DNA of 64,000 nucleotides. It comes from Hydrogenophaga sp. (lineage in GTDB: Bacteria; Pseudomonadota; Gammaproteobacteria; Burkholderiales; Burkholderiaceae_C). Of the stretch, positions 6,963 to 13,324 are shown piece after piece. The notes below the pieces were generated by a model. It had not been told where the DNA came from, ran no database searches, and saw only the letters and a list, made by a program, of their open reading frames with translations. Location: assembly GCF_018780075.1 (NCBI RefSeq), contig NZ_JADMKB010000114.1, forward strand, positions 2,446 to 66,445, in the 5' to 3' direction. Within the stretch, counting starts at the first letter, position 1; each line of letters opens with the position of its first letter. Made by a program: the position numbers and the translations under genes.

Positions 6963-8090
6963 TCAGGGCCCGCGAACACTGTCCAGCCCGGTTTTGCCGG
7001 TGGACACGCGCAAGGGCGAATGCACCGCCTCGCGCAAGATGCTGGAGGGACCCATCATTTCCGATTGTCCGTGGTGGGTTTGCAGTTCGGATTCGCGGTC
7101 GGCCTGGTCAAACTGCAGGGCCACCATGGCACGGCGGGTTTCTGTTTCGGCCCGACGCGCACTGTCGGGGTCGGTGGTCAGCCCCCCCGCATGGTAGAGC
7201 GCGCCAATGTGGCGTGCCAGTTCGTGTTCGGGCCAGCCGGTGCGCTCCAGCAACTGGGAGACAGTGGCCGGACGGGCAATGAGTTCGCGCATCAGGGAGA
7301 GGTGAATCTCGTCAAACCAATGCGCGGGCAGGCGCGGCACCCGCCGCAGGTACAGGCGCTGCTCGCGGTATCGCCCCGGCAGCACGTCGCGCCGGGTGCG
7401 CACCGCGTAGGTCCACATCACACGGTGCAACGGCAAACGGATGAACGAGGGCGGGACGTCTTTGGACAAGGAGGGCCCATGCACCCACTCGGCCATCGAC
7501 AGGTCGACCGGACGGGCGGGAATCAGCAACGCGGCCTGCCAGCGCTGGATGTCGATCACGGCGAGCAGCTTGCCGGAAAGGGTCACGTGCACCACGCCCC
7601 CCGAACGGTAGTCGCCCAGCCGCTCCAACAGTTGCGCCCCTAAGGCGAACTGGCTGCGCAGCGGTCGCAACCAGCCCTCGAAGCGCTGCAGCCGCTGGCG
7701 CACACTGGTTTCGCTGTCGGCCTCGAAAAACTCAGCCGACGCAAAACCTTCAGGCAGCGGTGCCGCAAAAGCCAGCGGACGGTCCACCTCGGCGCGGTTG
7801 AGCGTCAGGCGTTCGTCGCTGCCGTGCGGATGGCGGATCACCACCTCGTCGCGCCCCAGCACCTCCACCGCGTCACCGGCGATCATCCAGGCGTCGGCCA
7901 GGTGTGGGTCGCAGGTGCGCCACTCGGGCCACCCGGCGGGCGCCTGGGCCGCCCAGGCCTGGAGGCGCACGCCCACCGACTCGGAAAAACCCAACAGACC
8001 CAAACCCAGAACTGGCTGCTCCACACTGACTCCCAATGGCAACGCGTCAGCGCACTGGACTGCAACCCACGCAGCCTGGCGCCCATCCAT
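6963..8090 (-). CDS. Hypothetical protein (375 aa)
   Basis: Long ORF with diverse, non-Arg/Gly-biased composition. Both opposite-strand ORFs look spurious. A possible helix-turn-helix-like stretch (ATVSQLLERTGWPEHELARHIGAL) lies near the C-terminus. There is no clear SD at ATG 8090, so the start is uncertain. Confidence 0.6.
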   Translation of the reverse strand: MDGRQAAWVAVQCADALPLGVSVEQPVLGLGLLGFSESVGVRLQAWAAQAPAGWPEWRTCDPHLADAWMIAGDAVEVLGRDEVVIRHPHGSDERLTLNRAEVDRPLAFAAPLPEGFASAEFFEADSETSVRQRLQRFEGWLRPLRSQFALGAQLLERLGDYRSGGVVHVTLSGKLLAVIDIQRWQAALLIPARPVDLSMAEWVHGPSLSKDVPPSFIRLPLHRVMWTYAVRTRRDVLPGRYREQRLYLRRVPRLPAHWFDEIHLSLMRELIARPATVSQLLERTGWPEHELARHIGALYHAGGLTTDPDSARRAETETRRAMVALQFDQADRESELQTHHGQSEMMGPSSILREAVHSPLRVSTGKTGLDSVRGP

Positions 8091-9303: not shown

Positions 9304-9340
9304 CACGGAACTCCTCGGGTTGGCAAAAAAGAAGGTGGCA

Positions 9341-9376
9341 AAAAAAAAACCGCCGGGCGTCGGGCCCGGCGGTTTT
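9341..9376 (-). terminator. Intrinsic terminator (arm 3:4 of the attenuator)
   Basis: ACCGCCGGGC (9373-9364) pairs with GCCCGGCGGT (9358-9349), a 10-bp G/C-rich stem with a 5-nt loop, followed by T10 on the minus strand. It lies 38 nt upstream of the aroG ATG. Confidence 0.85.
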
Positions 9377-9398
9377 GGGAGGTTCGGTTGCGTTGCGC

Positions 9399-9503
9399 TT
9401 ACACCGTGGCCTCTCGTCCGCCGGGGACTGAGAACCAAAAATAAAAGCCAAAAAAGATGGCGGAGCGCGTTGGCATAGAGGCGCAATGTAGCACAGGGGC
9501 CAT
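9399..9503 (-). CDS. Putative aromatic-amino-acid leader peptide (34 aa)
   Basis: MAPVLHCASMPTRSAIFFGFYFWFSVPGGREATV*. SD AAGGTG (9515-9510) lies 6 nt upstream of ATG 9503 and overlaps the chrA stop codon. Too short for the ORF track. Confidence 0.6.
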   Translation of the reverse strand: MAPVLHCASMPTRSAIFFGFYFWFSVPGGREATV

Positions 9504-9513
9504 GACAAACACC

Positions 9514-10877
<1,364 letters not shown>

Positions 10878-10881
<4 letters not shown>

Positions 10882-11750
10882 TGAGGTCTCCAGTTGTGGG
10901 TTTCGGCATGACCACCGACCTGATCCACGCACCAGGCGTAGAAGGCGTCGTACACCGGCATCATGGCTTCCAGCATGGCGTGGTCGTTGTCGGCGTGCCG
11001 TCGCGACATGCCCAGCGACACCGCCAGCAAACCCGCAGCGGGCGCGGCCAGGTCCAGCCGGTCGGTGTCGGCCCCGCGCACGATACCGGCCAACAGGTCC
11101 AGCGCAGGCAGGCTCAGGCCGAACGCGTCCAGCAAGGTGTCGAAGCTGCAGCGCTCGCCCTCGTGCGAGATCGGCGCCCCGGGGATGTCGAAAGCCACGG
11201 CCTGGCGCTGCCCGGCCCGTTTCAGCACCTCGGCGGTGGGCACATAGAAGAACGTGGCCTCTCGGTCGATGAAACGGCGGACCAGCCAGGGGCAGGCGAT
11301 GCGGTCGATCTTGGGGCGCTCCCGTGTGATCCACCGGGAGCCGCCGGCACCGGTGACGCCCAGGTCGGGGCGCTTGCGCATCAGCGGCACCGGCAATGCA
11401 CCCAGCGCCTGCAGCAGCTCAGGGCTGTCCACGCCAGGCTCGCCGCCCTCGATGCCGCCCAGCAGGTAGCGCGCATCCCAGCCCGCGTCGCGCAACCGGG
11501 CGGCGGCACGCTGGCTGACCTCGTGGCCGTGCACGCAGCACACGACGGCCGCTTGCGGGGGACGGTCGCCCAGCCAGGCGCCCAGGTTGTCAGGGGCCAC
11601 GTGCAACGCCAAAGGCAACAGTGACGGGCTCAAGTCAAAGCGCTCGGTGCGGCGCACATCCAGGATCAGGGGGGTGTCGGGCTGGCCCAGGAGCGCCGCG
11701 AAGGCGCTGGGGCTGATGGCGTGGTTCGGATTCAATTCAACGGTTTCCAT
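10878..11750 (-). CDS. Rhodanese-domain / ChrB C-terminal-domain chromate resistance protein
   Basis: N-terminal rhodanese-like fold (LILDVRR...VVCCVHGHEVS). The C-terminal part (RPKIDRIACPWLVRRFID...) resembles the ChrB C-domain. Coupled to chrA. Confidence 0.8.
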
Positions 11751-11854
11751 GGTTGGCGCTCCACATCAGGTGGTGGCCAGCACTTGGACGGAAACCGTCT
11801 ATTCCCCAAGGAACTCGGGAGGCTGTGTTCCCGATGGAAGGATGCTATCCGATC

Positions 11855-13324
11855 TCAGGCCGTGCCACCAACGGTCAGGCCGTCGATGCGCAGCGTCGGC
11901 TGGCCCACGCCCACGGGCACGCTCTGGCCTTCCTTGCCACAGGTGCCCACGCCGCTGTCCAGCCGCATGTCGTTGCCGATCATGCTGATTTTTTTGAGCG
12001 ACTCGGGGCCGCTGCCCACCAGCGTGGCGCCCTTGACGGGGTACTGGATCTTCCCGTTCTCGACCCAGTAGGCCTGGCTGGCCGAAAACACGAACTTGCC
12101 GCTGGTGATGTCGACCTGGCCGCCGCCGAAGTTGGTGGCGTACAGCCCCTTCTTCATGCTGGCCACGATTTCATCGGCACTCTTGTCGCCGCCCAGCATG
12201 TAGGTGTTGGTCATGCGCGGCATCGGCACGTGCGCGTAGCTCTCGCGACGGCCGTTGCCGGTGGGCTTGACGCCCATCAGGCGCGCGTTCATGGCGTCCT
12301 GGATGTAGCCACGCAGGATGCCGTCTTCGATCAGCACGTTCTTCTGGGACGTGTGACCTTCGTCATCGACGTTGAGCGAGCCACGGCGGTCGGCGATGGT
12401 GCCATCGTCGAGCACGGTCACACCCTTGGCCGCCACGCGCTGGCCGATGCGGCCGGCGAACGCGCTGGAGCCCTTGCGGTTGAAGTCACCTTCCAGGCCA
12501 TGGCCCACCGCTTCGTGCAGCAGGATGCCGGGCCAGCCCGGGCCGAGCACCACGGTCATCTCGCCGGCGGGCGCGGGGCGGGCGTCGAGGTTGGTCAGGG
12601 CCGACGACACGGCTTCGTCCACGTAGGACTGCACCATGGCGTCGTCAAAATAAGCGAGCCCGAAACGCCCACCGCCACCGGAACTGCCCACCTCGCGGCG
12701 GCCATTCTGCTCGGCGATCACCGTGACCGACAGGCGGATCAGCGGCCGCACGTCGGCGGCCAGGGTGCCGTCGGCGCGGGCAATCAGCACCACGTCGTGT
12801 TCGGCGGCCAGACCGGCCATGACCTGCACCACGCGCGGGTCTTTGGCCTTGGCGAGCTTTTCCACCTTTTCCAGCAGCGCCACCTTGGCGGTGCTGTCGA
12901 GGGTGGCGATCGGGTCCAGACCGGGATAGAGCGAGCGCGACTTCGACACCTTCGCCGCCGGGCTGCGGACCTTGCGGCTCTGGCCCTGGCCGGAAATGGA
13001 GCGCACGGTGCGGGCCGCGTCGATCAGCGAGTCCCAGGACAGGTCGTCCGAGTAGGCAAAGGCGGTCTTCTCGCCGCTGACGGCGCGCACGCCGACGCCC
13101 TGGTCGATGCTGAAGCTGCCGGTCTTGACGATGCCCTCTTCCAGGCTCCAGCCCTCGCTGCGCGTGGTCTGGAAATAGAGGTCGGCGTCGTCGACGCCGT
13201 GCGACATGATTTCACCCAGCGCCTTGTGCAGCAGGGAGGTGTTCAGTCCGTAGGGCGTGAGCAGCAGGTTTTCGGCGGTGGCCAGTCGGGCAAGGGTGGG
13301 TTCGCGAGCAATCATGGGGGCCAT
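11855..13324 (-). CDS. tldD: Metalloprotease TldD
   Basis: HEAVGHGLEGD motif. 489 aa from ATG 13324 (MAPMIAREPTLARL...). The upstream part of ORF 11855-14221 is a spurious extension. Confidence 0.93.
   Translation of the reverse strand: MAPMIAREPTLARLATAENLLLTPYGLNTSLLHKALGEIMSHGVDDADLYFQTTRSEGWSLEEGIVKTGSFSIDQGVGVRAVSGEKTAFAYSDDLSWDSLIDAARTVRSISGQGQSRKVRSPAAKVSKSRSLYPGLDPIATLDSTAKVALLEKVEKLAKAKDPRVVQVMAGLAAEHDVVLIARADGTLAADVRPLIRLSVTVIAEQNGRREVGSSGGGGRFGLAYFDDAMVQSYVDEAVSSALTNLDARPAPAGEMTVVLGPGWPGILLHEAVGHGLEGDFNRKGSSAFAGRIGQRVAAKGVTVLDDGTIADRRGSLNVDDEGHTSQKNVLIEDGILRGYIQDAMNARLMGVKPTGNGRRESYAHVPMPRMTNTYMLGGDKSADEIVASMKKGLYATNFGGGQVDITSGKFVFSASQAYWVENGKIQYPVKGATLVGSGPESLKKISMIGNDMRLDSGVGTCGKEGQSVPVGVGQPTLRIDGLTVGGTA

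Follow-up and report, generated by a model that had tools for sequence, protein, structure and literature searches.

We analysed a 64,000-nt stretch of DNA from Hydrogenophaga sp. [quoted passage not shown] On the joint evidence of sequence comparison and folding models, the element would tie aroG expression to how fully tRNA-Phe, tRNA-Tyr, and probably also tRNA-Trp are charged. All coordinates refer to the window, and both the leader and aroG lie on its minus strand. The 210 nt between the stop codon of chrA (TAA, 9516-9514) and the aroG ATG (9303) hold every part of the leader. An earlier note on this DNA had proposed such an attenuator from the letters of the window; the parts that it listed lie on the minus strand where it placed them, give or take 1 nt, and the comparison with related loci reported here supports its proposal. 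The aroG product scores 534.7 bits against TIGR00034 (cutoff 173.2) and 543.8 bits against the AroG model NF006723, the latter below that model's cutoff of 568. Its closest relative found is the AroG of Hydrogenophaga pseudoflava (locus L001), with 91% identity.

At the centre of the leader is a run of eight codons, FFGFYFWF, with the codons given in the earlier note. Among the 114,159 stop-free 8-codon stretches in the six frames of the 64 kb, it is the sole one with seven aromatic codons. The run uses four UUU codons to one UUC, together with one UAU; the neighbouring genes show UUU and UUC in a ratio of 22 to 41, and UAU and UAC in a ratio of 5 to 30. The leader thus takes the rarer codons, UUU and UAU, in a genome with a GC content of 67.7%.

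Downstream of the run, segment 2 carries CCCGGCGG (9425-9418), which is identical to part of the 3' arm of the intrinsic terminator that precedes aroG (for the coordinates of all features, see Table 1). This copy can pair with CCGCCGGG (9372-9365) in the 5' arm of the terminator, and the resulting antiterminator helix extends by way of GAGAGG (9415-9410) and CCUCCC (9382-9377). The extension had been proposed in the earlier note with CCTCCC placed one base away. The terminator itself, with its run of ten T residues, was also as described there, although our terminator scan scored the stem as 13 pairs, nine of them G-C, rather than ten. Comparing the energies of the two alternative helices, we find that when segment 4 is absent the minimum-energy fold is the 2:3 antiterminator, at -27.6 kcal/mol versus -25.2 kcal/mol for the terminator hairpin.

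The arrangement is widely conserved. We fetched 80 aroG loci, one genome per species, and found the attenuator arrangement upstream of aroG in 66 of these loci from other species. Together with the singular codon run, this goes far beyond what chance would produce. In about 60 of the 80 a mini open reading frame (ORF) with at least six Phe, Tyr, or Trp codons out of eight is followed by a hairpin and a T-run, some 35-160 nt before aroG. A covariance model of the antiterminator span (R1) matches a single site per source in 66 sources, just before aroG in every case, and has only one match in the window (9426-9364, 55.7 bits). The carriers comprise Comamonadaceae and relatives (Hydrogenophaga, Variovorax, Acidovorax, Polaromonas, Ramlibacter, Limnohabitans, Comamonas, Rubrivivax, Aquabacterium, Roseateles, and Rhizobacter), the Burkholderia group (Burkholderia, Paraburkholderia, and Caballeronia), Oxalobacteraceae (Massilia, Janthinobacterium, and Rugamonas), Alcaligenaceae-type metagenome-assembled genomes (MAGs), and one Xanthomonas. 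Among the 80 loci, the element is absent from those of Polynucleobacter, Cupriavidus necator, Rhodocyclus, Dechloromonas, Methylotenera, and Chitinimonas.

Per-leader statistics were taken over 63 or 64 leaders. The leader peptides are 18-30 amino acids long (median, 24) and start three to six codons before the aromatic run. They contain on average 4.5 Phe, 1.8 Tyr, and 0.9 Trp residues (n = 64); every one of the 64 has Tyr, and 54 have Trp. There is some variation in the composition of the run. In Aquabacterium-type leaders (L029:2870-2926, L030:2796-2925, and L032:2848-2969) His is interleaved with the aromatic residues (FYFWHFHLPPH, RYHFWHFHIQH), and Burkholderia-type leaders carry FFWH or FFWY. 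Aromatic-rich upstream ORFs (MANPVRCFSYFWFSYFACEG... and MSRYFSFFSWYGYFAAG...) also occur at the aroG loci of two MAGs labelled Chloroflexota and Anaerolineae (L065:2805-2973 and L066:2798-2900). L065 has a different, strong terminator and L066 has no T-run; R1 matches neither, and the two could be independent attenuators or mis-binned contigs.

The pairing partners are conserved along with the run. In all 64 leaders the best partner of the terminator 5' arm is a homologous (C/U)GGCGG site, which bears out the earlier note's assignment of segment 2 as the antiterminator strand. This site lies 5-11 nt after the run in most leaders (maximum, 16 nt) and approximately 20-50 nt before the terminator arm. 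The 2:3 duplex has about the same energy as the terminator, and its median z-score against dinucleotide shuffles is -2.15 across the 64 leaders. The terminator core, ACCGCC/GGCGGT, is invariant in 41 relatives, but the base next to the core covaries in three segments at once: segments 2, 3, and 4 have C, G, and C in 31 leaders and U, A, and U in 14. At this position the 2:3 pair is kept in 51 of the 63 leaders and the 3:4 pair in 62. Further compensatory changes are seen across lineages in the inner antiterminator helix (CGAGA:UCUCG, GGAGA:UCUCC, UUGGA:UCCAA, CUGG:CCAG, and UCG..GGG:CCC..CGA). By a formal count, 71-72% of cells are paired, against 32-53% with slid partners; the covariation score is 0.139 versus 0.118 for shuffles, a value reached by one of 500 shuffles. 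RNAalifold on MAFFT alignments recovered only the invariant terminator and nothing for the antiterminator span. The upstream helices shift register between lineages, and we used anchored per-sequence analyses and the covariance model in its place. The ends of the peptides give a further indication of where the constraint acts. The tails PGGRE, TGGGE, TAAGE, LADREG, and PKAVE differ as amino acids, yet they share (C/U)GGCGG...GAGAG in different reading registers, and the constraint therefore acts on the RNA.

The position of the run relative to segment 2 is what attenuation would require. We masked a 28-nt ribosome footprint at each A-site codon in turn, folded the nascent transcript up to the terminator loop, and took P(2:3) as the mean probability that five core 2:3 base pairs form. 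Across the 63 leaders, the median P(2:3) is 1.0 up to the codon before the last aromatic, 0.8 at the last aromatic, and approximately zero for the next ten codons. In the window the corresponding values are 1.00 for F8-F13, 0.90 for W14, 0.02 for F15, and 0.00 for S16-T24, in agreement with the earlier note's suggestion that a ribosome stalled at the first Phe codons would free segment 2. In this model the end of the aromatic run coincides exactly with the point at which a stalled ribosome would start to cover segment 2, and this match is the strongest functional argument short of experiment.

We propose the following sequence of events. An extended -10 promoter (9493-9485) would direct transcription to start on the ATG at 9476 or a few bases from it, and a ribosome would then translate the 25-codon leader. 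When aromatic aminoacyl-tRNAs are scarce, the ribosome would stall within F8-W14 (9455-9435), its footprint covering the 5' strand of a local hairpin and leaving segment 2 (CCCGGCGG...GAGAGG, 9425-9410) free. Segment 2 would then pair with segment 3 (9382-9364) as this emerges, the terminator stem would not form, and RNA polymerase would enter aroG. When the tRNAs are charged, the ribosome would go on through codons 15-25 as far as the stop codon during the synthesis of segments 3 and 4. It would then occupy segment 2, or sit within the would-be antiterminator loop, leaving the 3:4 terminator to form and transcription to stop at the T10 tract. What the analysis shows of this is the set of parts, their conservation and covariation, and the geometry of the footprint; the promoter with its leaderless start, the order in which the helices fold, the fate of RNA that is not translated, and the response to aromatic supply are inferred.

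The start codon and promoter in this scheme differ from those first suggested. The earlier note had described a 34-codon ORF beginning at ATG 9503, preceded by a Shine-Dalgarno sequence (SD), AAGGTG. The ORF is present as described, but we reject its start as the leader start, since it is not conserved even in the closest relative: in H. pseudoflava the bases matching the ATG and the AAGGTG read GTCAAAA and AAGACG, respectively, which are neither a start codon nor an SD. The conserved start is the ATG at 9476, giving a peptide of 25 amino acids. No SD-like 4-mer lies 5-16 nt upstream of the leader ATG in any of the 64 leaders. Instead, 39 of the 64 loci have a motif TGnTAnnnT, most often TGCTACATT, whose end precedes the leader ATG by 6-9 nt (mode, 7 nt). 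In the window the matching box ends 8 nt before the ATG and falls inside the 34-codon ORF, and when aligned with the closest relatives it shows no change. From its conservation and spacing we consider it likely that the leader has a dedicated extended -10 promoter and that its mRNA is leaderless or nearly leaderless. On transcripts that continue from chrA, the extension from 9503, which is in frame with the leader, could still be translated, and attenuation could act on these transcripts as well. In Burkholderia-type loci (L055-L074: Burkholderia, Paraburkholderia, and Caballeronia), what is conserved instead is a promoter-like pair, TTGCCA-17-TATAAA, approximately 35-45 nt before the leader ATG, and here too the ATG has no SD.

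For the element that would compete with the antiterminator (segment 1), the earlier note had proposed TCCGCC, 5' of the run. This sequence is present and can pair with GGCGGA (9422-9417), with an energy of -13.2 kcal/mol in the window. However, the exact CCGCC occurs in only 14 of 63 leaders (the window, some Variovorax, and the Burkholderia group) and is absent from H. pseudoflava, so that we rule it out as a general anti-antiterminator. We take it to be a lineage-specific extra lock, one that would be available only on untranslated RNA. In Burkholderia-type leaders, the TCC GCC codons after the ATG form a UCCGCC that is complementary to segment 2 (-14.7 kcal/mol) and that may be a lock of the same lineage-specific kind on untranslated RNA. 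The general form of the 1:2 pairing is a local hairpin, spanning 9437-9407 in the window, and in nearly all of the 63 leaders the GGCGG core sits within a hairpin built alike. The 5' strand starts at the last aromatic codons, a placement that would suit an anti-antiterminator, and the outer helix differs from lineage to lineage (UCUC:GAGA, CUCC:GGAG, UUUUCC:GGAAGG).

Several results weigh against the attenuator as we have described it. The covariation support is real but modest, and comes from few positions and few evolutionary events, since the cores of the terminator and of segment 2 are nearly invariant. Helix 1 is 88% paired, but the inner helix (helix 2) only 52%; it has no fixed register, and realignment with the covariance model did not rescue one. 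Energetically the local 1:2 hairpin is weak and unexceptional (in the window, -13.8 kcal/mol and z = -0.5; median z, -0.6), and at equilibrium it fails to outcompete the 2:3 helix both in the window and in about half of the relatives. When no ribosome is present, the truncated transcript of the window goes into the antiterminator with P = 1.0; across the leaders the median no-ribosome P(2:3) is 0.68, with values <0.5 in 30 of 63. As modelled, default termination of untranslated RNA is thus not assured in this genome: Either the 1:2 hairpin would have to serve as a kinetic trap, or such termination may not occur. A footprint placed at the stop codon leaves the GGCGG core uncovered (P(2:3) = 1.0), and blocking at this stage is a steric argument, namely that a ribosome inside the 41-nt loop would prevent the helix from closing. 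A simple sigma-70 scan of the window leader returned neither a -35/-10 pair nor a canonical promoter, and what points to a promoter is the conserved extended -10 box alone. Finally, in 62 of 63 leaders the equilibrium fold at full length is the terminator wherever the ribosome mask is placed, and any switch must therefore be kinetic, as it usually is in attenuators. Masking of the full-length leader is for this purpose the wrong snapshot, and we rejected it as a test in favour of modelling the nascent transcript, which is informative. A kinetic decision is the accepted view for the Escherichia coli trp attenuator too.

The weakness of the 1:2 hairpin and the equilibrium folding leave room for extra factors, and the leader might act mainly at another level: through Rho-dependent polarity, through translational coupling, or as a terminated leader RNA working in trans as a small RNA (sRNA). 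An attenuator-derived sRNA of this sort exists (rnTrpL; PMC6614838), and there are sub-threshold resemblances to sRNA families, which are weak and come from the terminator only. We nevertheless regard such a role as unlikely to be the main one, since classical attenuation needs no more than a strong intrinsic terminator and a 2:3 helix that excludes it, and these are the parts that are conserved. Nor does any family in Rfam 15, leader, T-box, and riboswitch families included, reach its gathering score on the leader of the window or on those of 16 relatives. The Phe_leader family (RF01859) scores 15.3 bits on the window against a threshold of 55, matching the terminator only. The Burkholderia sRNA Bp2_287 gives a weak match on the opposite strand (19.5 bits) and does no better on a Burkholderia leader, and we rejected it as a candidate.

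A reading in which the hairpin and T-run form a plain terminator of the upstream gene (tldD, or chrA in this genome), with the mini-ORF and the arm copy having no regulatory role, draws on the layout of the locus. In many relatives only 27-70 nt, with no other terminator in them, separate the tldD stop codon from the leader ATG, and in the window nothing ends chrA before the hairpin, so that the hairpin may also end upstream transcripts. Yet a plain terminator leaves unexplained a codon run that has no equal in the 64 kb and is kept at 66 loci, a conserved copy of the 3' arm at a fixed distance after that run, the three-way covariation, the coincidence of the end of the run with the footprint boundary, and a -10 box fixed 6-9 nt from the ATG. 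As a full account of the element we find it very improbable.

We think it equally remote that the mini-ORF encodes a functional hydrophobic micropeptide (a membrane peptide, for example) to which the RNA structures are secondary: The aromatic core is conserved in general character and a leader peptide acting in trans is known (peTrpL in Sinorhizobium; PMC7298713), but the length (18-30 amino acids) and both termini vary freely, the tail is conserved as nucleotides across registers, neither a protein family match nor an entry in a collection of predicted proteins was found (see below), and a function in trans would add to attenuation rather than replace it.

Table 1. Features of the aroG leader and its surroundings in the window (all on the minus strand)
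Feature	Position	Description
chrB-b RNA motif	11834-11777	RF03086, 41.2 bits
chrB	11750-10878	rhodanese + ChrB_C
chrA	~10870-9514	last gene of the cassette
N-terminal extension of the earlier note's ORF	9503-9477	nine codons; ATG 9503, AAGGTG 9515-9510; not conserved; contains the -10 box
Probable extended -10 element	9493-9485	TGcTACATT; TG 9493-9492, hexamer TACATT 9490-9485
Conserved leader ORF	9476-9399	25 codons + stop, MPTRSAIFFGFYFWFSVPGGREATV*; no SD; probably leaderless or nearly leaderless mRNA
TCCGCC (segment 1 of the earlier note)	9464-9459	can pair with GGCGGA
Regulatory codon run	9455-9432	TTT TTT GGC TTT TAT TTT TGG TTC = FFGFYFWF
Local 1:2 hairpin (putative anti-antiterminator or pause hairpin)	9437-9407	UGGUUCUCAGUCC 9437-9425; loop CCGGC 9424-9420; GGACGAGAGGCCA 9419-9407
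Segment 2 (antiterminator 5' strand)	9425-9410	CCCGGCGG 9425-9418, then ACGA, then GAGAGG 9415-9410
Segment 3 (partner of segment 2 or segment 4)	9382-9364	CCUCCC 9382-9377 + AAAACCGCCGGGC 9376-9364
Intrinsic terminator	9376-9340	AAAACCGCCGGGC / loop CCGAC / GCCCGGCGGTTTT at 9376-9346; T10 at 9349-9340
aroG (regulated gene)	9316-8173	SD GAGGAG 9316-9311; ATG 9303; stop 8175-8173; class I-alpha DAHP synthase

The neighbourhood of the leader in this genome is unusual. At 47 of 65 loci the gene next upstream of the leader is tldD, often across a gap of only 27-70 nt, and chrA or chrB is found in none of those. In the window a chrB-b/chrB/chrA cassette of approximately 2.3 kb (9514-11857) separates the tldD stop codon (11857-11855) from the ancestral tldD-aroG spacer. 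The insertion begins right after the tldD stop, and homology to the ancestral spacer resumes at approximately position 9518, so that the chrA stop codon falls in sequence homologous to that spacer. The cassette is present in none of the 65 other aroG loci. Two features that the earlier note had found odd, the overlap of the supposed leader SD with the chrA stop codon and the lack of a terminator after chrA, are real; both are explained by insertion of the cassette into the tldD-aroG spacer, the leader probably having its own promoter.

We compared the leader peptides with protein models and found no match at E-values up to 10 (seven peptides against NCBIfam, four against Pfam), and ten exact leader peptides have no occurrence among approximately 15 billion predicted proteins. 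A full-text literature search, including the peptide strings, found no betaproteobacterial or Xanthomonas aroG leader; older comparative surveys lie outside its reach, and a prior description there is possible. The earlier note was not aware of any description of such a leader, and within that search this holds for Betaproteobacteria and Xanthomonas, but leaders on DAHP synthase genes do have precedents, and to call this one a distinct regulatory solution was an overstatement. In Corynebacterium glutamicum a leader peptide with a Phe-Tyr-Phe motif lies upstream of the DAHP synthase gene aroF (Mentz 2013, PMC4046766; PMC3890552); in the summary of Neshat 2014 given in PMC11802643, attenuation there is relieved under Phe limitation, and Tyr availability is described as without effect. 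In Acholeplasma, the uORFC-13-1 motif is a predicted Phe-coding upstream ORF set immediately before an intrinsic terminator ahead of aroF (Brewer et al. 2021, PMC8632094). Attenuators have also been predicted ahead of aroF-tyrA in Vibrio (PMC1173090), and attenuation of E. coli aroF is an old hypothesis (Camakaris 1980, as cited in PMC8632094 and PMC2659441).

The likeness to the enterobacterial attenuators (trpL, pheL/pheA, hisL, leuL, and thrL) is one of design. Both have a short ORF with regulatory codons, a terminator, and an antiterminator that shares the terminator 5' arm. The local hairpin described here, which overlaps the regulatory codons, is a candidate counterpart of their 1:2 hairpin, and the decision would likewise be kinetic and coupled to translation. 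In contrast to the enterobacterial systems, the leader described here shows no similarity to them in sequence or by model, precedes the DAHP synthase of the common pathway rather than a gene of a terminal branch, mixes Phe, Tyr, and usually one Trp codon, and has no SD and probably a leaderless start. Segment 2 is moreover part of the coding sequence, and the stop codon follows it. The C. glutamicum aroR/aroF leader likewise has Phe and Tyr codons upstream of a DAHP synthase gene, but it belongs to a different phylum and has only the Phe-Tyr-Phe triplet in place of a seven-of-eight run, and the likeness is a functional analogy. Acholeplasma uORFC-13-1 shares the predicted Phe-codon ORF, the intrinsic terminator, and the DAHP synthase gene; it is a Mollicutes motif with a ribosome-binding site and as few as one Phe codon, known as a prediction only, and a different RNA family. 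Repression by TyrR and TrpR in enterobacteria has the same physiological purpose, that of keeping the production of DAHP synthase in line with the aromatic amino acids available. There, however, repressor proteins sense free amino acids at the promoter, whereas the element here would sense tRNA charging at the RNA level.

What we describe is thus very probably a leader-peptide attenuator of the classical kind, and we found none recorded for this gene in this clade; it extends a textbook mechanism and introduces no new principle. A broader view, which we offer tentatively and hold to be somewhat less than an even chance, is that it represents an undescribed attenuator family of Burkholderiales and Xanthomonas. 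In this family an SD-less peptide of 18-30 amino acids would integrate the charging of the Phe, Tyr, and Trp tRNAs at the single entry to the shikimate pathway, taking the role that TyrR and TrpR have in enterobacteria. The leader AUG would probably be 5'-terminal in Comamonadaceae-type genomes, and some genomes, including this one, may terminate only with a ribosome over segment 2, the 1:2 hairpin being too weak.

The mechanism itself will not surprise a specialist. More noteworthy are its spread over many Burkholderiales genera and Xanthomonas, the predicted mixed Phe/Tyr/Trp sensing at the entry to the pathway, the probable leaderless start, and the weak 1:2 pairing. DAHP synthase controls the entry of carbon into the shikimate pathway, and its regulation in Burkholderiales is largely uncharted, in an order that includes pathogens as well as plant-associated and biotechnological strains (Burkholderia, Paraburkholderia, Variovorax, Acidovorax, and Comamonas). 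A conserved sensor of tRNA charging at the RNA level would provide a concrete and easily tested regulatory model. It would also offer a target for deregulated production of aromatic compounds, by deletion of the terminator or recoding of the leader, and is a candidate new family for Rfam and for genome annotation. If a leaderless attenuator peptide does occur in Proteobacteria, it would be a test case for leaderless translation coupled to transcription.

Two further observations concern the surroundings of aroG. Directly downstream of the gene is an ORF of 375 amino acids (6963-8090, minus strand), which has 77% identity to its counterpart in H. pseudoflava and 38-40% in a few other loci, and in which the HTH_20 domain is found only below threshold (23.6 bits; cutoff, 27). 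Between the terminator T-run and the aroG SD there is a second short T-rich tract (CTTCTTTTTTGCC, 9326-9340, minus strand), and the terminator scan reports a weak hairpin (9354-9337) overlapping it.

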